Shown here: piece after piece, positions 17,603 to 28,121 of the stretch
Position numbering within the stretch: the first letter of the stretch is position 1
Layout of the letters: every line of letters begins with the position of its first letter
Origin: Flavobacteriaceae bacterium
GTDB taxonomy: Bacteria; Bacteroidota; Bacteroidia; Flavobacteriales; Flavobacteriaceae
DNA: 32,000 nt
Reading direction: 5' to 3'
NCBI GenBank assembly: GCA_965224465.1
Contig: OZ245049.1
Span: 4,230,001 to 4,262,000, forward strand
The notes under the pieces: generated by a model
Told to the model about the DNA's origin: nothing
Databases searched by the model: none
What the model saw: only the letters and a program-made list of their open reading frames with translations
Position numbers and translations under genes: made by a program

Positions 17603-17683
<81 letters not shown>

Positions 17684-17786
17684 ATTTATACATTTTCAAA
17701 TAGCCATTAGGGAAAACCCTTTTGGAGTATTCAGTACTATTTCTTGTCTTAACTTGTAAAACAAGAAATAATCTGAATTAATTAAG

Positions 17787-17860
17787 AGCCAATGGAGGGA
17801 CTCGAACCCGCGACCTGCTGATTACAAATCAGCTGCTCTAGCCAGCTGAGCTACATCGGC
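17787..17860 (-). tRNA. tRNA-Thr (TGT), copy 1
   Basis: The reverse complement is GCCGATGTAGCTCAGCTGGCTAGAGCAGCTGATTTGTAATCAGCAGGTCGCGGGTTCGAGTCCCTCCATTGGCT. The anticodon loop is TTTGTAA. There is one C-U mismatch in the T stem. Confidence 0.85.
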
Positions 17861-17934
17861 TTTTTACTTTATTTTAAAGTTAAAGTGAAAACTTTTTCGC
17901 TTATTAAAAACGACTTTTTAAAATTTGAAAAATG

Positions 17935-18015
<81 letters not shown>

Positions 18016-18041
18016 ATTTATACATTTTCAAAATTTCAAAG

Positions 18042-18115
18042 AGCCAATGGAGGGACTCGAACCCGCGACCTGCTGATTACAAATCAGCTGCTCTAGCCAG
18101 CTGAGCTACATCGGC
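18042..18115 (-). tRNA. tRNA-Thr (TGT), copy 2 (identical to copy 1)
   Basis: The 74-nt sequence is identical to 17787-17860. Confidence 0.85.
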
Positions 18116-18148
18116 GTTACTTTATTTTAAAGTTAAAGTGAACTTTTG

Positions 18149-18223
18149 TCGGGGTGGCAGGATTCGAACCTGCGACCTCCTCGTCCCAAACGAGGCGCGA
18201 TAACCGGGCTACGCTACACCCCG
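18149..18223 (-). tRNA. tRNA-Pro (TGG)
   Basis: The reverse complement is CGGGGTGTAGCGTAGCCCGGTTATCGCGCCTCGTTTGGGACGAGGAGGTCGCAGGTTCGAATCCTGCCACCCCGA. The anticodon loop is TTTGGGA. Confidence 0.9.
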
Positions 18224-18243: not shown

Positions 18244-18274
18244 CAAATATAGCCACTTTTATGGTTCCTACAAA
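18244..18274 (-). promoter_or_regulatory. Bacteroidota-type promoter for the tRNA cluster
   Basis: The minus strand reads TTTG-N19-TATATTTG (-33 at 18271-18274, -7 at 18244-18251), about 20 nt upstream of the tRNA-Pro 5' end. It matches the published Bacteroides/Flavobacterium TTTG / TAnnTTTG consensus. Confidence 0.5.
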
Positions 18275-19867: not shown

Positions 19868-21451
19868 ATGGATTTATTCTCGAATAGTTATTTTGTACTT
19901 TTTTTAATCATTGTAATTGGCTTTGTTTTAGGTCGCATAAAAATCAAAGGTATTTCTTTAGATGTATCAGCAGTAATTTTTGTGGCCTTGGTGTTTGGGC
20001 ATTATGGAGTGACCATCCCTAAAGACTTTCAATATTTGGGCTTGGTTCTTTTTATCTTTACGATTGGAATTCAGGCAGGTCCTAGTTTTTTTGAATCTTT
20101 TCGAATGAATGGGAAGGAGTTGGGGCTATTGGCAGGAATTTTAATTATTTCCGCTTCTTTAGTTACGTTTGCAGTGTATTATTTCTTTGGGATTGATAAA
20201 AATTTAGCCATTGGTTTATTGGCAGGTTCCCTAACAAGTACTCCTGGATTAGCCGCAGCAATTGATGCGACAGGTTCTCCCTTGGCTTCTATTGGTTACG
20301 GTATCGGCTATCCTTTTGGTGTTATTGGAGTTATTTTATTTGTGAGTTTTTTACCAAAAATATTACGTGTCAATATTTTAGAAGAGGAGCAAAAATATAA
20401 AGATGAGCTACAAGAAGGGTTTCCAGAAATTGTTCGTCAGTATTTTGTAGTAGAAAACGAGAAAGTATTAGGGAAGAGTTTGGCAGAATTGAATGTTCGT
20501 TTTATGACCAAGGCTGTAATCTCTAGAATTATGCAAGGTGATGTAGTGTTAGCGCCTTCTCCAGAAATTATATTTAAAAAAGGAGATATAATTCGTGCCG
20601 TGGGAACCAAAGATTCATTGGAGCGTATTCAATTATTAATGGGGTCTCCTACAGATAAAGAGATACCTCAAAACACGAATATTGAAGTGAGATCAGTATT
20701 GGTGACCAATAAAAATGTGGTGAATAAAACATTGGGACAACTGAATATATTTACTGCTTTTAATGCTACAATTACACGCATTCGTAGGTCTGGAATTAAT
20801 TTGTTACCAAAACCTTCTGCTAAGTTACAGTTTGGTGATAAGTTAGTTATAGCTTGTGATAAAGAACATATGAAATTGGTAACACGCTTTTTTGGAGATG
20901 ATGATAAAAAATTATCAAACACAGATTTTTTACCGATCGCTACAGGAATTATATTGGGGATATTGGTAGGTAAATTGAGCATTAATATGGGAAATTTCTC
21001 CTTTAGTTTAGGGTTGACAGGTGGTATTTTGTTGGTGGCACTGGTATTAGGTAGAACAGGAAAAACAGGACCAATTATGTGGACCATGACCGGGGCAGCA
21101 AATCAATTGTTACGCCAGTTTGGATTGTTGTTTTTCTTAGCTGCTGTTGGAACAAGTGCTGGGTCTAGCTTGGTGTCTACATTTCAAGAGTATGGCGTGG
21201 AGCTGTTTATGTATGGAATAGTCATCACTTTATTGCCCATGATTTTGACTACAATTGTTGCTCGTACATTTTTTAAAATGAATTTGTTAACCTTGTTGGG
21301 AACATTAACAGGAAGTATGACCAGTACCCCTGGATTGGCTACAGTGGATAATATGGTTGATACAGATGCGCCAGCTGTTGCTTATGCAACGGTGTATCCA
21401 ATTGCCATGGTCTTATTGATTATTGTGATACAAATATTGACAATGTTGTAA
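19868..21451 (+). CDS. Putative transporter of the AAE (AspT/YidE/YbjL) family with two central RCK_C/TrkA_C domains
   Basis: 527 aa with duplicated membrane halves. Both halves carry G..TSTPGLA (SLTSTPGLAAA / SMTSTPGLATV). The central soluble repeats are KSLAELNV...GDIIRAVG and KTLGQLNI...GDKLVIAC. Confidence 0.75.
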   Translation: MDLFSNSYFVLFLIIVIGFVLGRIKIKGISLDVSAVIFVALVFGHYGVTIPKDFQYLGLVLFIFTIGIQAGPSFFESFRMNGKELGLLAGILIISASLVTFAVYYFFGIDKNLAIGLLAGSLTSTPGLAAAIDATGSPLASIGYGIGYPFGVIGVILFVSFLPKILRVNILEEEQKYKDELQEGFPEIVRQYFVVENEKVLGKSLAELNVRFMTKAVISRIMQGDVVLAPSPEIIFKKGDIIRAVGTKDSLERIQLLMGSPTDKEIPQNTNIEVRSVLVTNKNVVNKTLGQLNIFTAFNATITRIRRSGINLLPKPSAKLQFGDKLVIACDKEHMKLVTRFFGDDDKKLSNTDFLPIATGIILGILVGKLSINMGNFSFSLGLTGGILLVALVLGRTGKTGPIMWTMTGAANQLLRQFGLLFFLAAVGTSAGSSLVSTFQEYGVELFMYGIVITLLPMILTTIVARTFFKMNLLTLLGTLTGSMTSTPGLATVDNMVDTDAPAVAYATVYPIAMVLLIIVIQILTML

Positions 21452-21468
21452 AAAAAACAAAAAATAAA

Positions 21469-21499
21469 TTTGCATATTTAAAAATAGATGTTACATTTG
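21469..21499 (+). promoter_or_regulatory. Bacteroidota-type promoter of the trp operon leader
   Basis: TTTG (21469-21472) - 19 nt - TACATTTG (21492-21499). Confidence 0.5.
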
Positions 21500-21529
21500 T
21501 CATATCTAAATTAAAGTAGATAAACAACA

Positions 21530-21589
21530 ATGACAAGAAATACAAACATATGGTGGTGGAACTCTCTTAATCAAACAAGCGAGCAATAA
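21530..21589 (+). CDS. trp operon leader peptide, 19 aa (MTRNTNIWWWNSLNQTSEQ)
   Basis: Too short for the ORF track. ATG at 21530, three consecutive TGG codons at 21551-21559, TAA at 21587-21589. It sits between the promoter and a terminator directly upstream of trpE. Confidence 0.7.
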   Translation: MTRNTNIWWWNSLNQTSEQ

Positions 21590-21616
21590 CCTCTATATAT
21601 AAACTATATAAATTTA

Positions 21617-21650
21617 AAAAGGACTTATCTCGCGATAAGTCCTTTTTTTT
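21617..21650 (+). terminator. Attenuator terminator 8 nt upstream of the trpE start
   Basis: AAAAA-GGACTTATC-TCGC-GATAAGTCC-TTTTTTTT: 9-bp stem (21621-29 / 21634-42), extendable by A-U pairs, followed by a T8 tract. Confidence 0.8.
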
Positions 21651-21658
21651 GTGCAATT

Positions 21659-23050
21659 ATGAAAAAAATAAAATACACCACTACCGTAAAAAATCAACTT
21701 TCGGATACGATCACTCCGGTTAGTTTGTACACAAAAATTAGAGATAAATTTCCGAACACATTATTGTTGGAAAGTTCCGATTATCACAGCAAGGAGGAGA
21801 GTTTTTCCTTTATATGTATTGAGCCTTTGGTGACTTTTAAAGTAGACAACGGTGTTTTTTCTTACGAAAAAGATACTGTGATTGAAGCAACAGAAACGAT
21901 AGACGGTAATTTTTATGAAATTTTTGAACGCTATAAGAAAACTATTGATGTAAGCTGTGACGATAAAGTGGCTGCTTTTAATGGCTTTTATGGCTATATT
22001 TCTTTTGATGCTGTTCAGTATTTTGAAAAGATACAATTTTCATCTAAAAAAGCACCTTCTGATATTCCAGAATTTCAGTTTAGCTTTTTTAAATACATTA
22101 TTTCAATCAATCATTTTAATGATGAAATGACCTTGATAGAAAACGTAAAGGAAGGTGAATTGCCTAGCATAGAAAAAATACAAACATTAATTAATACACA
22201 GGCATTTCCATTGTATGACTTTTCTATGGTGGGAGAAGAAAAATCAAATTGTACAGATGCTGAATTCAAAGAGTATGTACGTAAAGGAAAACAGCATTGT
22301 AAACGGGGTGATGTATTTCAATTGGTGTTGTCACGACAGTTTCAACAAGGGTTTGAGGGAGACGAATTTAATGTGTATAGAGCACTGAGATCCATCAACC
22401 CATCTCCTTATTTGTTTTATTTTGATTATGGAAATTTCAGACTCATGGGATCCTCTCCAGAAGCGCAAATTAAGGTCAATGCCACTAAAACTATTATCAA
22501 TCCTATTGCAGGTACTTTTAGACGTACTGGAAATATGGCGGAAGACATACTCTTGGGAGAGAAGTTGTTAAAAGATAAAAAAGAGAATGCAGAGCATGTG
22601 ATGCTCGTAGATTTGGCTCGAAACGATTTGAGCAAACATGCCAGTGATGTTAAAGTCAGTGTTTTTAAAGAGGTACAGTATTTTAGCCATGTAATTCATT
22701 TGGTTTCTACCGTAGAGGGAACTCCTAAAGGCGATGCTATAAAAATTGTTGGTGATACGTTTCCTGCCGGTACTTTGAGCGGAGCTCCAAAATACAAGGC
22801 GATGGAGTTAATAGATACTTACGAAAATCAAACACGTGGTTTTTATGGAGGTGCTGTTGGTTTTATCGGTTTAAAAAACGAGGTGAATCTAGCCATTGCC
22901 ATTCGTTCTTTTGTGAGTAAAAACAATGTATTGTATTCACAAGCAGGAGCTGGAATTGTAATCAGTTCAAGTGAAGAAAGTGAATTGCAAGAAGTAAATA
23001 ATAAATTGGCCGCCTTAAATAAGGCATTGACATTGGCAGAAAATATATAA
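21659..23050 (+). CDS. trpE: Anthranilate synthase component I
   Basis: 463 aa: LLLESS (Trp-feedback region), NPSPYLFYF, GTLSGAPK, GFYGGAVGF. Confidence 0.95.
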   Translation: MKKIKYTTTVKNQLSDTITPVSLYTKIRDKFPNTLLLESSDYHSKEESFSFICIEPLVTFKVDNGVFSYEKDTVIEATETIDGNFYEIFERYKKTIDVSCDDKVAAFNGFYGYISFDAVQYFEKIQFSSKKAPSDIPEFQFSFFKYIISINHFNDEMTLIENVKEGELPSIEKIQTLINTQAFPLYDFSMVGEEKSNCTDAEFKEYVRKGKQHCKRGDVFQLVLSRQFQQGFEGDEFNVYRALRSINPSPYLFYFDYGNFRLMGSSPEAQIKVNATKTIINPIAGTFRRTGNMAEDILLGEKLLKDKKENAEHVMLVDLARNDLSKHASDVKVSVFKEVQYFSHVIHLVSTVEGTPKGDAIKIVGDTFPAGTLSGAPKYKAMELIDTYENQTRGFYGGAVGFIGLKNEVNLAIAIRSFVSKNNVLYSQAGAGIVISSSEESELQEVNNKLAALNKALTLAENI

Positions 23051-23100
23051 TAGCGTTTTTGACAGTGATTAAAGACATTCAAACGATCAAAAAAAAAGAA

Positions 23101-23679
23101 ATGAAGATTTTAATACTAGATAATTACGACTCGTTTACCTATAATTTGGTGCACATGGTCGAAGATATTACAGGCACATACCCTGCAGTTTTTAGAAATG
23201 ATGAAATTAGCATTGCGGAAGTAGGCGCGTATGATTTGATTATTTTATCTCCAGGTCCTGGGATTCCTGAAGAGGCAGGGATTTTAAAAGAGGTGATCAA
23301 AGTTTATGCAGGTAAAAAACCAATTTTTGGAGTTTGCTTGGGATTGCAAGCGATTACAGAAGTTTTTGGAGGACGTATAGAAAATATGGATGAGGTATTT
23401 CACGGAGTGGCTACTACCATGTTTCAGACCGGTAAAGAAGCGGTGGTTTACAAAGGAATTCCTAAACAATTTGAGGCAGGACGTTACCATTCTTGGATTT
23501 CAAAAATAGAGGATTTCCCTTCAGAACTAGAAATTACAGCGATAGATGATGATGGGGGGATTATGTCTCTACAGCATAAAGCATATAATATAAGTGCTGT
23601 GCAGTTTCATCCAGAATCTATTTTAACACCCTTAGGAAAACAGATAGTACAAAATTTTATTGACGCAAATTCTAATTAG
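23101..23679 (+). CDS. trpG: Anthranilate synthase component II (glutamine amidotransferase)
   Basis: MKILILDNYDSFTYNL, GVCLGLQA (catalytic Cys), VQFHPES. The ORF track start at 23059 adds 14 residues that do not fit the family. Confidence 0.92.
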   Translation: MKILILDNYDSFTYNLVHMVEDITGTYPAVFRNDEISIAEVGAYDLIILSPGPGIPEEAGILKEVIKVYAGKKPIFGVCLGLQAITEVFGGRIENMDEVFHGVATTMFQTGKEAVVYKGIPKQFEAGRYHSWISKIEDFPSELEITAIDDDGGIMSLQHKAYNISAVQFHPESILTPLGKQIVQNFIDANSN

Positions 23680-23681
23680 AG

Positions 23682-24668
23682 ATGAAGGTAATTTTAAATA
23701 AGTTATTTGCTCATGAGCATTTGACAGCACAAGAAGCTAAGGAAATATTAATCAGAATTGCTAAAAACGAGTTTAATTCTTCTCAAATAGCCTCTTTTTT
23801 AACCGTTTTTTTGATGAGATCATTATCGGTAAACGAGTTGATTGGTTTTAGAGATGCCTTATTAGAATTGGCAATAAAAATTGATCTTTCAGATTTCAAT
23901 ACCATTGATCTATGTGGGACAGGTGGTGATGGTAAGGATACGTTTAATATTTCTACACTCACCTCGTTTATTGTAGCTGGTGCTGGATATAAAGTAGCAA
24001 AACATGGAAATTATGGTGTGTCTTCTACCTGTGGTTCTTCTAATATGTTAGAACATCTAGGCTATGAATTTACCAATAATGAAACAGTGTTAAAACGTCA
24101 ATTGGACAAGGCTAATATTTGTTTTTTACATGCACCTTTGTTTCATCCAGCTATGAAAGCAGTAGGGCCAATACGTAGAGAACTAGGCTTAAAAACCTTT
24201 TTTAATGTACTGGGACCTCTTGTAAATCCTAGCCAACCGAAAAATCAAATGGTGGGCGTTTTTAACATGGAAATTGCACGTTTATACGGCTATTTAATGC
24301 AAAAATCTTCTCGTAATTATAAGGTGGTTCACAGTTTTGATGGTTATGACGAAATCTCATTGACAAGTAAGTTTACGATTATTTCAAACCAAGGCACACG
24401 TATTTATACTCCTGAAGAAATTGGTTTTAAACGCTTGGATCAAGAGGCTATTGTAGGGGGGGCTTCCGTCGCTGCATCAGCAAAAATATTTAAGAATATT
24501 ATTGAAGGAAATGGAACAGATGCTCAAAACAATGTGGTGTTGGCAAATACTGTTTTTGCCATTCAAACCATTGCTCCAACTTGTTCTTTTGAACAGGCGT
24601 ATGAACAAGCAAAAGATTCCTTATTAGGATTAAAAGGCGCCAAGTGTCTCACCAATTTATTAGCATAG
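23682..24668 (+). CDS. trpD: Anthranilate phosphoribosyltransferase
   Basis: DLCGTGGDGKDTFNIST, KHGNYGVSS, and its position in the trp operon. Confidence 0.93.
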   Translation: MKVILNKLFAHEHLTAQEAKEILIRIAKNEFNSSQIASFLTVFLMRSLSVNELIGFRDALLELAIKIDLSDFNTIDLCGTGGDGKDTFNISTLTSFIVAGAGYKVAKHGNYGVSSTCGSSNMLEHLGYEFTNNETVLKRQLDKANICFLHAPLFHPAMKAVGPIRRELGLKTFFNVLGPLVNPSQPKNQMVGVFNMEIARLYGYLMQKSSRNYKVVHSFDGYDEISLTSKFTIISNQGTRIYTPEEIGFKRLDQEAIVGGASVAASAKIFKNIIEGNGTDAQNNVVLANTVFAIQTIAPTCSFEQAYEQAKDSLLGLKGAKCLTNLLA

Positions 24669-24674
24669 ATAAAC

Positions 24675-25466
24675 ATGACTATATTAGATAAAATTATCGC
24701 AGAAAAGCGAAAGGAGGTTGCTGTATTAAAAGAAAAAATAAGTATTTCAACATTGGAAAAGTCTCCTTTTTTTAAAAGGGATACACTTTCTTTAGAAACG
24801 TCTTTGTTGGCAGCAAATAGTACTGGAATTATTGCTGAATACAAAAGAAAATCTCCTTCGAAAGGATTGATTAACGGAATAAATACGATCCAAGAAGTAA
24901 CATTAGGGTATTTGGATGCCGGTGTAGCTGCTCAATCTATATTGACGGATACTTCTTTTTTTGGGGGCTTAAATGATGATTTATTAAGCGCAAGAGTCCT
25001 CAATAAATCGCTGCCAATTCTCAGGAAAGATTTTATGGTGGACGAATTTCAAATTGTTGAGAGTAAGGCAATGGGAGCAGATGTTATTTTACTGATTGCT
25101 GCTTGTTTAACGCGACAAGAACTGAAAAATTTTGGTGCTTTGGCAACAGATTTAGGATTGAGTGTTTTATACGAAGTACACAGTCAAGAGGAATTAGATA
25201 AAATAGAGTTGCAGGATAAAATTATAGGCATCAATAATCGAAATTTAAAGACTTTTGAAGTAGACTTAGAACATTCCATTCAGTTGGCGAGTCAAATTCC
25301 AGATAGCTGTATCAAAGTTTCTGAAAGTGGAATTAGCAGTCCTCAAACTATTTTAGACTTGAAAAAACATGGTTTTAAAGGGTTTTTAATCGGAGAAAAC
25401 TTTATGAAAACAACAAATCCTGGAGCGGCTTGTAAGGCGTTTATCCAACAATTAGACCGCTCATGA
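24675..25466 (+). CDS. trpC: Indole-3-glycerol-phosphate synthase
   Basis: IAEYKRKSPSKG, LRKDFMVDEFQI, GINNRNLKTFEVD. Confidence 0.93.
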   Translation: MTILDKIIAEKRKEVAVLKEKISISTLEKSPFFKRDTLSLETSLLAANSTGIIAEYKRKSPSKGLINGINTIQEVTLGYLDAGVAAQSILTDTSFFGGLNDDLLSARVLNKSLPILRKDFMVDEFQIVESKAMGADVILLIAACLTRQELKNFGALATDLGLSVLYEVHSQEELDKIELQDKIIGINNRNLKTFEVDLEHSIQLASQIPDSCIKVSESGISSPQTILDLKKHGFKGFLIGENFMKTTNPGAACKAFIQQLDRS

Positions 25467-26092
25467 AATTAAAAGTTTGTGGCATGCGTAATGCAGAAAA
25501 TATAAAGGAGTTAGTCCAGTTAAAACCAGATTATATTGGTTTTATTTTCTATGAAAAATCAAGTAGAAATGTGACGGATTTCCCTGAGGTTGAAATTCCT
25601 TCTTCGATTAAAAAAGTGGGGGTGTTTGTAAATGCATCATTGGAATATGTAAGCAATATTGTAAGGAAGAATTCCTTGGATTGTGTCCAGTTACATGGTG
25701 ATGAGACCGCTGCATATTGCAAGGGATTGAAAGCAATGATGGCTGCTAAAACACAAATAATAAAAGCATTTCCTGTAGGGGAGTCTTTTGATTTTGAAAA
25801 GTTAGAGGCGTTTGATGCTTATGTGGATTGTTTCTTGTTTGATGCTAAGGGAGAAAAAGTTGGAGGGAACGGAGTGGTGTTTGATTGGAATTTATTACAA
25901 AAAAACATGTCTAAGAAACCCTTTTTATTGAGTGGTGGATTGGGAGAGGACTCTGTGAGTGAACTTCAAAAGTTTATGAAAACCTCTCTCGCTGATACGT
26001 GTATTGGTTGGGATGTAAATAGTAAGTTTGAAATACGTCCAGGGTTTAAAAATATAGATAAGATTAAAGAATTTAAAAATAAGTTGGTATGA
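25463..26092 (+). CDS. trpF: Phosphoribosylanthranilate isomerase
   Basis: [33 protein letters not shown]. It overlaps the trpC stop by 4 bp (ATGA). Confidence 0.9.
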
Positions 26093-27276
26093 GTTGTTTT
26101 GTAGATGAAAACGGGTATTATGGTGATTTTGGAGGCGCATTTATTCCTGAAATGTTATATCCAAACGTAAAAGAATTAGGAGAACAGTATTTGGAAATAA
26201 TGAGTGAACCTTCCTTTAAAGCGGAGTTTGATAGTTTATTAAAAGATTATGTAGGGCGTCCTACACCTTTGTATTTTGCAAAGCGATTGTCAGAGAAATA
26301 CCAAACCAAAATCTATTTAAAACGGGAGGATTTAAACCATACAGGTGCACATAAAATTAACAATACCATTGGGCAGATTTTAATGGCACAACGTCTAGGG
26401 AAGAAACGTATTATTGCAGAAACAGGAGCAGGGCAGCACGGAGTGGCTACGGCGACCGTTTGTGCGCTTATGGGATTGGAATGTGTTGTGTATATGGGAG
26501 CAATAGACATTGCACGTCAGGCACCCAATGTGGCACGTATGAAAATGCTGGGGGCTACCGTGGTTCCAGCATTGTCTGGAAGTAAAACATTAAAAGATGC
26601 GACCAACGAGGCGATCCGTGATTGGATAAATAATCCGGTAGATACTCATTATATTATTGGTTCTGTAGTAGGCCCGCATCCGTATCCAGATATGGTGGCG
26701 CGTTTTCAATCCGTTATTTCTAAGGAAATGAAATCGCAATTATTAGAAAAAGAAGGGCGTGAGAATCCAGATTATGTGATTGCCTGTGTTGGTGGAGGAA
26801 GCAATGCTGCTGGGGCGTTTTATCATTATTTAGAGGAAGAATCAGTGCGGTTGATTGCTGTGGAAGCAGCTGGGAAAGGCGTAAATTCAGGAGAAAGTGC
26901 TGCTACAAGTGTGTTGGGGTACGAAGGTGTTATACATGGAAGTAAAACCTTATTGATGCAAACAAAAGATGGTCAAATTACAGAACCGTATTCCATCTCT
27001 GCAGGATTGGATTATCCTGGGGTAGGGCCATTACATGCTCATTTATATAAGACAAAACGTGCAGAATTTATTGCGGTAACAGATGATGAAGCCATGAAAG
27101 CAGGTTTGGATTTATGTCAATTGGAAGGAATTATTCCTGCCATAGAAAGTGCTCATGCACTGGCTGTTTTTGAAGCGAAGAAATTCAAAAAAGACGATCT
27201 AGTAGTGCTGAATTTATCAGGGCGTGGAGATAAGGATTTGAATACGTATATCAACTATTTTGGATTGGATTCCTAG
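26089..27276 (+). CDS. trpB: Tryptophan synthase beta chain
   Basis: [10 protein letters not shown], the PLP-lysine region [11 protein letters not shown], and GGGSNAAG. It overlaps the trpF stop by 4 bp (ATGA). Confidence 0.96.
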
Positions 27277-27359
27277 CGATTACTTTGCCTATTTGATCTT
27301 GTTTTTCGAATCTTAAATGATGAGAATAAGCGCATTCAATAACATTAAAAAGAAATAAA

Positions 27360-28121
27360 ATGAATAGAATTCAACATAAATTAAACGAAAATAAAAAACT
27401 ACTATCTATCTATTTTACGGCAGGATATCCCGAACCAGATAGTACGGTTAAAATAGTAGAGGAACTCGAAAAAAGCGGAGTGGATTTTGTAGAAATCGGC
27501 TTGCCTTTTAGTGATCCATTGGCAGATGGTCCTACCATTCAAGCGAGTTCTACCATCTCCTTAAATAATGGGATGACTACAGAAGTCTTGTTTGAGCAGT
27601 TAAAAGACATTCGGAAAACGGTTTCAATTCCCCTTATAATTATGGGTTATTTTAATCCTATGTTGCAATATGGGATCGAAGCGTTTTGTAAAAAATGTAA
27701 GGAAATTGGAATTGATGGCTTGATTATTCCTGATTTACCAATTAGGGAATACAACGAATTGTACCGAGAAACTTTTGAAAAATACGATTTGATCAATGTT
27801 CTTTTAATCACACCTCAAACATCCGAGGAACGCATTCGTTTTATCGACGATATTTCTAATGGATTTATTTATATGGTAAGCTCAGCGGGTGTAACAGGGG
27901 CGAAGAATACTTTTGGAGCGATTCAGAAATCCTATTTTAAACGCATTGATGATATGAAATTAAAGACACCTCAGGTGGTTGGTTTCGGCATTTCCAATGC
28001 AGAGACATTCCAACAGGCGACTATGTATGCCAAAGGGGCAATTATAGGTTCTGCATTTGTAAAGCACTTGACCGAAAAAGGGGTGGATACCATTGATGCT
28101 TTTGTACGTAGCATTCGTTAG
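27360..28121 (+). CDS. trpA: Tryptophan synthase alpha chain
   Basis: VDFVEIGLPFSDPLADGPTIQ, GYFNP, GFGIS. Confidence 0.93.
   Translation: MNRIQHKLNENKKLLSIYFTAGYPEPDSTVKIVEELEKSGVDFVEIGLPFSDPLADGPTIQASSTISLNNGMTTEVLFEQLKDIRKTVSIPLIIMGYFNPMLQYGIEAFCKKCKEIGIDGLIIPDLPIREYNELYRETFEKYDLINVLLITPQTSEERIRFIDDISNGFIYMVSSAGVTGAKNTFGAIQKSYFKRIDDMKLKTPQVVGFGISNAETFQQATMYAKGAIIGSAFVKHLTEKGVDTIDAFVRSIR

Follow-up and report, generated by a model that had tools for sequence, protein, structure and literature searches.

A probable ribosome-mediated trp attenuator of the Bacteroid-trp family ahead of trpEGDCFBA in a Flavobacteriaceae bacterium

The window that we analysed, a 32,000-nt stretch of a Flavobacteriaceae genome, carries a complete trp operon, trpE-trpG-trpD-trpC-trpF-trpB-trpA (21659-28121, from ORFs and NCBIfam assignments; this and all features below are on the + strand), whose nearest TrpE proteins, at 70-75% identity, are those of Lutibacter, Polaribacter and Tenacibaculum. 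Directly 5' of the operon, ahead of the trpE ATG at 21659, lies a leader, and the question raised by this locus is whether the leader adjusts transcription to tryptophan and, if so, by what switch. A first-pass annotation had proposed attenuation logic of the E. coli trpL type, and our results support it through the conservation of the element at 77 of 80 loci, covariation in the antiterminator and folds computed with a masking ribosome. In all likelihood, the element at 21469-21658 is a ribosome-mediated, trpL-type transcription attenuator of trpEGDCFBA, homologous to the Rfam family Bacteroid-trp. Very probably, the flavobacterial trp operon would be turned on only at tryptophan shortage, via a WWW mini-ORF and a terminator hairpin.

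The leader ORF, its conservation and its promoter

The leader contains a 19-codon ORF, MTRNTNIWWWNSLNQTSEQ plus stop, that runs from an ATG at 21530 to a TAA at 21587-21589 and holds three consecutive, in-frame Trp codons, UGG UGG UGG (TGGTGGTGG, 21551-21559), both as described in the first-pass annotation. These UGG codons would be the regulatory ones, on which a shortage of charged tRNA-Trp would stall the ribosome. Three of the 19 codons, ahead of a trp operon, are thus for Trp. By chance, 0.13 copies of TGGTGGTGG would be expected in the window, which has three; the other two (at 2180 and 9818) lie within long ORFs in another frame (GGT GGT) and were rejected as leaders. The UGG codons are invariant in our alignment A1, and 28 Flavobacteriaceae genomes have homologous M..WWWNSL.. 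ORFs. Between the third UGG and a downstream GYGAG motif, the spacing is conserved at 21-23 nt, as counted by hand on the relatives' sequences.

In 77 of the 80 Bacteroidota genomes, trpE is preceded by a W-run mini-ORF with an intrinsic terminator behind it, and at all 77 loci the terminator begins 7-41 nt after the leader stop (20-41 nt everywhere except L029). In a congener (L190) with 80-84% identity in the aligned flanking DNA, the leader differs at 3 of 121 positions, compared with about 18% in the flanking genes (P about 1e-7), and the leader ORF itself shows no differences over 60 nt; by this comparison, the leader RNA appears to be under purifying selection.

Upstream of the ORF, a Bacteroidetes-type promoter can be read where it had been proposed, with a -33 TTTG at 21469-21472, a 19-nt spacer and a -7 box, TACATTTG, at 21492-21499. 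The pattern by itself shows no enrichment over chance (3 matches in the window against 2.24 expected), and a sigma-70 promoter scan is irrelevant to Bacteroidota. A homologue of the promoter is found at the equivalent place in relatives, however, nearly identical in the congener. By analogy with F. johnsoniae, in which 4-5 nt separate the -7 element from the start (PMC6847099), transcription would begin at about 21504-21505. In most relatives, the -7 box ends just 5-10 nt 5' of the leader AUG, which suggests a nearly leaderless mRNA. The window's transcript has a small predicted hairpin at its 5' end (21505-21520; UCUA at 21505-08 paired with UAGA at 21517-20 in minimum-energy folds), located in a 23-nt segment of the 5' UTR that is missing from most relatives. 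The congener has at the equivalent place, judged by eye, a different yet self-complementary sequence, UCUAAU / AUUAGA.

Alternative pairings of the leader RNA

Compared with shuffled sequences, the 161-nt region has a folding z-score of -4.88. Its terminator has a core made of the left arm GGACTTATC (21621-29), the loop TCGC (21630-33), the right arm GATAAGTCC (21634-42) and a T8 tract (21643-50), so that the terminator at 21621-21650 ends 8 nt before the trpE ATG, as first annotated. With the flanking A5 and T5, the stem reaches 14 bp (21616-21647) and -17.2 kcal/mol; the 9-bp core alone gives -12.5. We refer to the left arm AAAAAGGACUUAUC with the loop UCGC as segment 3 (21616-21633), which folds and covariation indicate to be common to terminator and antiterminator, and to the right arm GAUAAGUCCUUUUU, the last five U's of which begin the U8 tract at 21643-50, as segment 4 (21634-21650; sequence and folds). 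In 29 relatives, the terminator helix is 97.5% paired, with two compensatory pairs, and the terminator arm GGCUUAUCG is common across Bacteroidota.

Could this hairpin with its T-run simply end transcription of the YidE/AspT-like transporter gene upstream (19868-21451), as a constitutive terminator, or be a bidirectional one, the WWW mini-ORF being coincidental? An A-run and a T-run border the hairpin, and a generic terminator scan reported it on the minus strand only; that call is a scanning artefact, caused by greedy stem extension that consumes five of the T's. Between the transporter stop at 21451 and the trp promoter there is no further terminator, so read-through from upstream would end at the hairpin too, and a secondary role as terminator of the transporter gene is plausible. 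As an account of the whole element, however, this is hardly credible, given that the transporter gene is separated from the hairpin by a conserved promoter, that no minus-strand gene converges on the hairpin, and that the terminator loop covaries with the sequence at the leader stop codon. Moreover, trpE has the mini-ORF and terminator ahead of it at 77 of the 80 loci and the transporter gene at only 3; the element therefore travels with trpE. We keep to the attenuator reading, in which the hairpin is one of three competing structures.

The second of these is the antiterminator, formed by segments 2 and 3. The alternative pairing of about 12 bp put forward in the first-pass annotation (21579-83:21629-33, 21586-89:21625-28 and 21590-92:21620-22) holds in that all 12 pairs are canonical, with a joint energy of -6.5 kcal/mol, but its middle AUAA:UUAU block is specific to the window; the general part of the antiterminator is a GYGAG:CUCRC core, with CCU:AGG added in many leaders. 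The upstream partner had been said to cover the last two sense codons and the stop; it actually reaches into the last three sense codons and extends through the stop and 3 nt past it. It belongs to segment 2 (21577-21598), which holds GCGAG (21579-83), the stop codon (21587-89) and CCU (21590-92) and, from folds and covariation, alternates between segment 1 and segment 3.

Covariation is seen in the core. Among 120 unique leaders, GYGRG and its UCRY partner combine as U:A in 83 and as C:G in 37, with no mixed case, and one leader (L129) has the window-type stem together with the other Y:R state. In the formal analysis of 84 sequences, the antiterminator is 88.3% paired, with UA:53 and CG:24 at the covarying pair, and none of 500 shuffles matched this covariation, which rests on one variable pair and probably on only a few independent evolutionary events. 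In a fixed register, 13-14 of the 84 sequences score as unpaired at the loop-adjacent antiterminator pairs. These are largely the 15 alignment rows with GCGA, GCAA or GCAC loops (18 of the 120 leaders), in which the UCGC partner is retained, shifted 2 nt upstream, with variation at the unpaired loop positions. The relatives bear out both expectations raised at the outset, since the W-run mini-ORF recurs at the 77 loci and compensatory changes occur in the terminator and in the antiterminator core.

The third structure is a hairpin between segments 1 and 2. The layout had been called minimal; instead, the leader has the full 1:2 / 2:3 / 3:4 design of the E. coli style, with a 1:2 hairpin at 21548-21598 (-12.1 kcal/mol, z = -2.78). 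Its 5' arm, segment 1 (AUAUGGUGGUGG plus AACUCUCUU, 21548-21568), pairs in the minimum-energy fold through 21548-53:21593-98, 21555-57:21589-91, 21562-64:21581-83 and 21566-68:21577-79. In this model, the Trp codons and the next three codons are predicted to pair with the antiterminator strand (21577-98), which would make the hairpin a classical anti-antiterminator. It corresponds to the helix of the RF01692 consensus, with the UGG codons within the 5' arm, and a leader's own segments pair better than those taken from other leaders (-7.04 vs -5.94 kcal/mol, permutation p < 0.0005). In fixed columns, the inner helix (CUCUCUUA:UAAGYGAG) is 78% paired, with no covariation above controls; support for this helix comes from conservation, the rare-codon argument given below and folds. 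RNAalifold, applied to a 29-sequence alignment, recovered the terminator and a 3-bp CUC:GAG helix only, and misses the other helices because consensus folding in fixed columns cannot follow indels or short helices that slip (UGG repeats, CUCUCU). For the ORF, the terminator, the antiterminator core and the 1:2 hairpin, the sequences show presence, conservation and covariation.

The strong conservation of the whole leader (3 of 121 positions against about 18% in the flanking genes) and that of the WWWNSL peptide motif also bear on a further possibility, namely a trans activity, on top of the cis role, of the terminated leader RNA or of the WWWNSL peptide. A precedent exists in Sinorhizobium meliloti, where trpL lies before trpE(G) and where, according to published reports, the rnTrpL RNA and the peTrpL peptide have documented trans functions (PMC6614838, PMC7298713). 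We regard such an activity here as very improbable. The NSL codons, AAC UCU CUU, are explained by their pairing with AAGYGAG in the 1:2 hairpin, and this includes the rare Leu codon CTT, which is kept in the leader and makes up 4% of the Leu codons in the window's genes. In addition, no target or other evidence of trans action was found. Attenuation in cis, through the three pairings described above, is the reading that we develop further.

Ribosome position and the choice of structure

From these elements, we infer a mechanism that would involve a defined start site, coupling of transcription and translation, ribosome stalling and a response to tryptophan. Transcription would begin a few nucleotides past the -7 box, at about 21504, and a ribosome would translate the 19-codon leader from 21530 while RNA polymerase proceeds. 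If charged tRNA-Trp is scarce, the ribosome would stall on UGG UGG UGG (21551-59) and cover segment 1 (21548-68); in this stalled state, GCGAG and CCU of the free segment 2 (21577-98) could pair with 21620-33 before the right arm is made, and this 2:3 pairing would block terminator nucleation so that polymerase enters trpE. If tryptophan is plentiful, the ribosome would reach the stop codon and mask segment 2, since the stop codon (21587-89) lies inside that segment; the 14-bp terminator and U8 would then form, and transcription would stop near 21650. On an untranslated leader, segment 1 would pair with segment 2 at -12.1 kcal/mol, and the terminator would again form. The leader geometry is compatible with ribosome footprints.

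Folding of the masked transcript is consistent with this scheme. When the stop codon is in the A site, the expected ribosome footprint is about 21572-21599. In folds of the window's transcript cut at 21633, a ribosome on WWW leaves 21579-83:21629-33 and 21590-92:21620-22 formed, with a pairing probability of at least 0.98 for 21629-33; this probability is 0.14-0.62 with the ribosome at the stop codon and 0.19-0.71 with no ribosome. Folding with and without constraints had been suggested in the first-pass annotation as a check on its helices, and at this cut the two just named are part of the minimum-energy fold under the WWW mask only. Across 78 leaders, sequestration of the terminator left arm is higher with a ribosome on the Trp codons than with one at the stop (Wilcoxon p = 1.6e-5) or with none (p = 1e-8). 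For the window, a narrow measure of sequestration, taken over the upper 8 nt of the left arm, gives 0.44 with the ribosome on the Trp codons or absent and 0.40 with the ribosome at the stop, and ribosome dependence emerges once the loop and AGG are counted. In silico, then, ribosome position would select the leader structure, a stall freeing segment 2 and a ribosome at the stop masking it. An AU-only spacer hairpin (21594-99:21605-10) is predicted in the antiterminated conformer only; it partly overlaps the sole leader differences from the congener, at 21600, 21602 and 21604.

At equilibrium, every minimum-energy fold of the full-length transcript includes the terminator, even when a ribosome is stalled on the leader. 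We therefore discard a thermodynamic switch; antitermination has to be a kinetic, co-transcriptional event, possibly a leaky one. The antiterminator is indeed thermodynamically weak, worth about -6.5 to -8.7 kcal/mol where the terminator reaches -17.2, and this weakness lends something to the idea that the leader ORF and the terminator regulate trp by a different switch: another antiterminator, control of trpE translation by the hairpin, or Rho or some other factor acting on the untranslated leader. When distant Bacteroidota loci are included (78 loci), 2:3 duplexes within a locus average -8.85 kcal/mol and those with partners from other loci -8.01, a median of 47% of foreign partners being equally good. 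Furthermore, the last base of the stem, 21647, is 12 nt away from the trpE AUG (21659), within the region that a ribosome initiating there would occupy, and initiation in Bacteroidia is reported to be sensitive to mRNA structure (PMC6847099). We nevertheless judge a different switch improbable. The GYGAG:CUCRC pairing covaries perfectly in Flavobacteriaceae and is what the folds predict under a stalled ribosome, and the distance between terminator and trpE ranges from 10 to >200 nt in relatives, so the overlap with the trpE start region is not conserved.

Relation to known attenuators and to the Bacteroid-trp family

Leader-peptide attenuation has been dissected chiefly in Proteobacteria and Actinobacteria. 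In E. coli, trpL has tandem Trp codons, and its segments form a 1:2 hairpin, a 2:3 antiterminator and a 3:4 terminator followed by a U-run; segment 2 becomes free when the ribosome stalls on the Trp codons and is masked when it reaches the stop, and without leader translation termination is full. The window's leader follows the same four-segment logic, but with three Trp codons instead of two and with an antiterminator that extends into the terminator loop and is far weaker than the terminator. Its translation must also begin without a Shine-Dalgarno sequence, as reported for initiation in Bacteroidia. No sequence or model similarity accompanies the shared logic, RF00513 (Trp_leader) giving no match in the region at E up to 10; the element works like the RF00513 family and is not a member of it. 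In Firmicutes, T-box RNAs and TRAP make the choice between terminator and antiterminator at trp genes by sensing uncharged tRNA or, for TRAP, through activation by Trp, whereas the sensing element in the window is a conserved translated WWW ORF, so that ribosome position would be sensed. The T-box model (RF00230) had no match at its gathering threshold in the window, nor at E up to 10 in 21440-21700. With S. meliloti trpL, the window shares a ribosome-dependent Trp attenuator before trpE and a small leader ORF, but no homology by any test run, and nothing in the window points to trans functions.

Of the Rfam models, RF01692 (Bacteroid-trp) matches the region best, at 31.7 bits (E = 0.051 in a 261-nt search) over the full model, 1-131. 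The window has no match at the family's 49-bit gathering threshold, an operational cut-off and not a biological feature, so Rfam annotation at that threshold misses this element. Five relatives score above it (L080, L009, L027, L005 and L011; 49.7-58.4 bits), of which all except L080 are aligned with the window in A1. Bacteroid-trp was described by Weinberg et al. 2010 as a Bacteroidete tryptophan peptide leader RNA with a "loosely conserved hairpin"; attenuation was presumed by the authors, with no consensus diagram and with neither terminator nor antiterminator named (PMC2864571). The 2:3 pairing and its covariation, both lacking from the published family description, were worked out here. 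We found no experimental work on the family in the literature, for any organism or any Bacteroidota member, in line with an earlier remark that attenuators in Flavobacteriia are without experimental characterisation, and Bacteroidetes go unmentioned in Naville and Gautheret 2010.

As in Bacteroid-trp, the window's element lies directly 5' of trpE in Bacteroidota (the family's site is trpE or trpB), has a short ORF with conserved UGG codons and a hairpin enclosing them, and carries the AAAAGGCUUAUC terminator arm that stands at the model's 3' end. It differs in a 5' UTR that is 23 nt longer, in a leader ORF that is three codons longer and passes through the GCGAG element, and in a stem of the GGAC type. 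The attenuator before trpE is thus an additional member of a catalogued, previously predicted family and is ordinary in kind.

Beliefs about trp regulation in these bacteria are unchanged by this analysis; what had been a presumed mechanism is now filled in. Bacteroidota ribosomes ignore Shine-Dalgarno sequences, and we know of no demonstration of close transcription-translation coupling in this phylum. Because the attenuator would work only if the ribosome trails RNA polymerase by a few tens of nucleotides, it would be indirect evidence for such coupling, and Bacteroid-trp attenuators offer a compact system in which to test it. If initiation on the leader is Shine-Dalgarno-independent and nearly leaderless, the family would be a ready-made coupling reporter for Bacteroidota. 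Two further ideas seem unlikely to us. One is a trans function for the attenuated RNA, some 145 nt long, or for the WWWNSL peptide; the other, separate from it, is that the family might be the first attenuator with Shine-Dalgarno-independent leader initiation.

The approximately 120 unique leaders and the explicit 1:2 / 2:3 / 3:4 model could sharpen the RF01692 family model. In A1, the window shares with L005, L009, L011 and L027 the invariant blocks UGGUGGUGG, CUUAUC and UAAG, the last in the terminator right arm. Near-invariant in the same leaders and the window are CUCUU (C at column 38 in at least 90%; column 41 varies) and AAG/G.GAG (A at column 58 in at least 90%).

Layout of the leader and its linkage to trpE

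The promoter, leader ORF, terminator and start codon proposed by the first-pass annotation were each found at their coordinates when 21300-21800 was read and the pieces extracted. On the forward strand, TTTG (21469-72), a 19-nt spacer and TACATTTG (21492-99) are followed by a leader ORF (21530-21589) that encodes MTRNTNIWWWNSLNQTSEQ, with three UGG codons at 21551-59, and by a terminator (21621-21650) composed of GGACUUAUC, UCGC, GAUAAGUCC and U8. The trpE AUG lies at 21659, and seven ORFs with family assignments (trpE, G, D, C, F, B and A) occupy 21659-28121. Including the flanking A/U runs, the terminator stem has 14 bp (21616-47) and a free energy of -17.2 kcal/mol, the 9-bp core alone giving -12.5 kcal/mol. 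TGGTGGTGG occurs three times in the window against 0.13 expected, the other two copies being out of frame within long genes. The promoter motif alone is not rare (3 matches in the window, 2.24 expected); its support comes from its conserved position in relatives.

Scanning the window's TrpE against one genome per species gave 80 loci, the best matches being in Lutibacter (75% identity), followed by Polaribacter and Tenacibaculum, which places the window in the Flavobacteriaceae. At 77 of the 80 loci, the 350 nt preceding trpE contain a Trp-run mini-ORF (<60 codons), and all 77 carry an intrinsic terminator starting 7-41 nt past the leader stop codon (20-41 nt except at L029, an Ichthyobacteriaceae locus). 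A metagenome scan with the 19-mer after the first UGG as query added 120 loci with 93 unique leaders, including that of a congener (L190; 80-84% identity over ~13 kb of synteny). The transporter gene upstream of the element in the window was found at three Lutibacter loci only, so the element belongs to trpE and not to the upstream gene. This linkage, the conserved promoter in between and the covariation of the terminator loop described below together rule out that the hairpin is chiefly a plain terminator of the transporter gene, a reading to which we assign almost no probability. Since no other terminator follows that gene, the element may double as its terminator as a by-product. The earlier attenuator reading is upheld by the trpE-linked conservation, the covariation and the ribosome-masked folds: from comparative sequence analysis, we consider this element a real, functional-looking Trp leader-peptide attenuator.

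Comparison with the congener gives evidence of selection on the RNA. Across 21530-21650, only 3 of 121 sites differ (21600, 21602 and 21604), all within the AU-rich spacer, whereas 16-19% of sites differ in the flanking genes (P ~1e-7 for the contrast); the 60-nt leader ORF has no change. The codons after the Trp run are AAC UCU CUU in nearly all relatives even though only 4% of the Leu codons used by the window's genes are CUU, and the keeping of this rare codon points to constraint on the nucleotides rather than the peptide. That the leader RNA or its peptide acts in trans seems to us very improbable.

Alternative structures of the leader RNA

We propose an explicit three-structure model, which is new, in which segments 1-4 form an anti-antiterminator (1:2), an antiterminator (2:3) or the terminator (3:4). 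Among 29 Flavobacteriaceae leaders, 97.5% of cells in the terminator helix are paired, and compensatory changes occur at two pairs (GGAC/GUCC versus AGGC/GCCU stems). The alternative pairing first suggested, 21579-92 with 21620-33, consists of 12 canonical pairs and gives -6.5 kcal/mol as an isolated structure. Its core in the window is GCGAG (21579-83) with CUCGC (21629-33), the latter being the final stem base plus the loop of the terminator; in Polaribacter and Tenacibaculum it is GUGAG with CUCAC, and a Tenacibaculum variant, CUCAU, makes a G.U pair. The second base of the core and its partner are U:A in 83 of 120 unique leaders, C:G in 37 and mixed in none. The claim of a core that excludes the terminator by sharing its stem and loop bases is borne out. 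The antiterminator helix reaches 88.3% pairing in an anchored 84-sequence alignment, with UA in 53 and CG in 24 sequences at the covarying pair, and the observed covariation was reached by 0 of 500 shuffles. This covariation evidence for an antiterminator invading the terminator loop is also new.

When the register was fixed, the loop-adjacent pairs were scored as unpaired in 13-14 sequences out of 84. These sequences largely correspond to 15 alignment rows (18 of the 120 unique leaders) with GCGA, GCAA or GCAC loops, which retain the UCGC partner two bases upstream while loop positions outside the pairing vary, as would be expected if the pairing, and not the loop, is selected. One leader (L129) combines the window-type GGAC stem with GUGAG/UCAC; the Y:R state is thus not simply tied to stem type. 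Many leaders share the second antiterminator block, CCU (21590-92) with AGG (21620-22); the middle block, AUAA:UUAU, is window-specific.

The first-pass annotation had described a minimal layout, which did not hold: a full segment 1 exists, and the Trp codons themselves sit in the 1:2 hairpin. Folded without constraints, the RNA pairs 21548-53 with 21593-98, 21555-57 with 21589-91, 21562-64 with 21581-83 and 21566-68 with 21577-79. This hairpin, which is that of the Rfam RF01692 model, has -12.1 kcal/mol by itself (z = -2.78) and sequesters both GCGAG and CCU. The repetitive UGGUGGUGG lets its outer part shift register from one clade to the next, making fixed-column counts unsuitable, and so we compared pairing with a leader's own partner and with those of other leaders. 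Pairing was stronger with own partners (-7.04 kcal/mol; others, -5.94 kcal/mol), a result matched by none of 2000 permutations; examples are CCAC/GUGG in Tenacibaculum and AAAUAUGAAUUGG/CUAUUAUAUUU in Lutibacter. For the inner part, CUCUCUU with AAGYGAG, conservation was seen without covariation.

Ribosome position and the leader 5' end

We folded a transcript that stops where the terminator loop does (21633), with a masked ribosome footprint extending 15 nt 5' and 12-14 nt 3' of the first A-site nucleotide. Whichever of the UGG codons the ribosome occupies, the MFE fold contains 21579-83:21629-33 and 21590-92:21620-22 around a spacer hairpin. The pairing probability of 21629-33 is then 0.98-1.0, compared with 0.19-0.71 with no ribosome and 0.14-0.62 at the stop codon, a fall that agrees with the masking predicted earlier for a ribosome there, as far as these models go. 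Among 78 leaders, sequestration of the terminator left arm with the ribosome at the last Trp codon exceeded that with the ribosome at the stop codon in 52 (Wilcoxon p = 1.6e-5) and that with no ribosome in 60 (p = 1e-8). The contrast is sharpest in Flavobacteriaceae, typically ~0.7 versus 0.1-0.3. In all Flavobacteriaceae the third UGG is 21-23 nt from GYGAG despite a shifting stop codon: most relatives have UAA directly before GUGAG, and in the window and its congener the ORF runs through GCGAG to a stop two codons further. In both arrangements a terminating ribosome would cover GYGAG.

In the full transcript the terminator is always in the MFE fold, so only a kinetic mechanism, of the kind known from classical attenuators, can give antitermination. 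The comparatively weak antiterminator is, in these models, the chief mechanistic uncertainty. That another kind of switch operates in the window, for instance a hairpin 12 nt before the trpE AUG controlling translation of that gene, appears unlikely. Such an arrangement is not conserved, the terminator-trpE distance ranging from 10 to >200 nt in relatives.

The -7 box TAnnTTTG ends 5-10 nt, most often 7, short of the leader AUG in most relatives from the Flavobacteriaceae (short-gap loci L001, L003, L004, L006-L008, L013-L015, L018, L020, L021, L023, L024 and L026-L028; leader regions ~2330-2500). Given this gap and the 4-5 nt between -7 element and start site in F. johnsoniae (PMC6847099), the relatives' leader peptide is probably translated from an almost leaderless mRNA. 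This new observation would be unusual; in F. johnsoniae, leaders exceed 10 nt in 87% of predicted transcripts (PMC6847099). The window (21499-21530) and the congener instead have a 30-nt gap. The extra 5'-UTR segment in the window (21503-21522) forms a small hairpin at the predicted 5' end (UAUCUA...UAGAUA), and the congener's equivalent region, read by eye, is different in sequence and likewise self-complementary (UCUAAU...AUUAGA). The hairpin might be a 5'-terminal stabilising stem-loop.

Family membership and neighbouring features

At gathering thresholds, Rfam reports only five tRNAs in the whole window. In a permissive search of 21440-21700, RF01692 ranks first, scoring 31.7 bits (E = 0.051; threshold, 49 bits), the alignment spanning the whole model from just 5' of the leader AUG to the terminator left arm. 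Five of 20 loci tested pass the threshold (L080, L009, L027, L005 and L011), and the last four align block for block with the window. The element is thus a sub-threshold member of a known, experimentally untested family, a catalogued status that the first-pass annotation had missed. Rfam titles the family "Bacteroidete tryptophan peptide leader RNA". Weinberg et al. (2010; PMC2864571) ascribed to the motif control of trpB and trpE in Bacteroidetes, where no Trp attenuation leader had been reported up to then, and described "a loosely conserved hairpin" whose consensus diagram was not drawn; a 2019 Flavobacterium psychrophilum paper mentions it as an in-silico element. Our literature searches found no experimental study of the RF01692 motif, in line with the lack of such work noted earlier. 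The element would work like E. coli trpL, yet is unrelated to it.

Other features were seen near the leaders of relatives. About 300 nt upstream of trpE, L029 (an Ichthyobacteriaceae MAG) has tandem WWW ORFs, MITINKIWWWQSKL and MINSKLNNWWWPVLTQYVGQSRYKNI, with one terminator each, which looks like a duplicated attenuator in series. In Prolixibacteraceae/Draconibacterium (L039, L043, L051, L052, L054 and L070), a second conserved mini-ORF, M.KINTIWLPWWGLLT, lies 5' of the WWW leader, 220-340 nt upstream of trpE, and may encode a small protein or be a further Trp-rich leader. Insertions at L007, L012, L017 and L019 place 107-140 nt between attenuator terminator and trpE; those of L017 and L019 share an inverted-repeat element (...ctcgagcgcagtcgagagg... 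/ ...ctcgactgcgctcga...) that resembles a small repeat, mobile or REP-like.

Flavo-1 RNA (RF01705) matches lie on the minus strand of two Tenacibaculum genomes (L006 3896-3971, 55.9 bits; L010 3896-3974, 65.1 bits), directly after the trpE stop codon and antisense to the trp operon; the window has no equivalent, trpG beginning 8 nt past trpE. In Tenacibaculum soleae, a cobalamin riboswitch (RF00174, 89 bits; L006 914-1114) unrelated to the attenuator precedes the trp leader by ~1.4 kb. In the window, the tRNAs form a minus-strand cluster (17603-18223), in which two pairs with identical scores suggest tandem duplication, and a TTTG-N19-TATATTTG promoter match (18244-18274) lies just upstream on the same strand.
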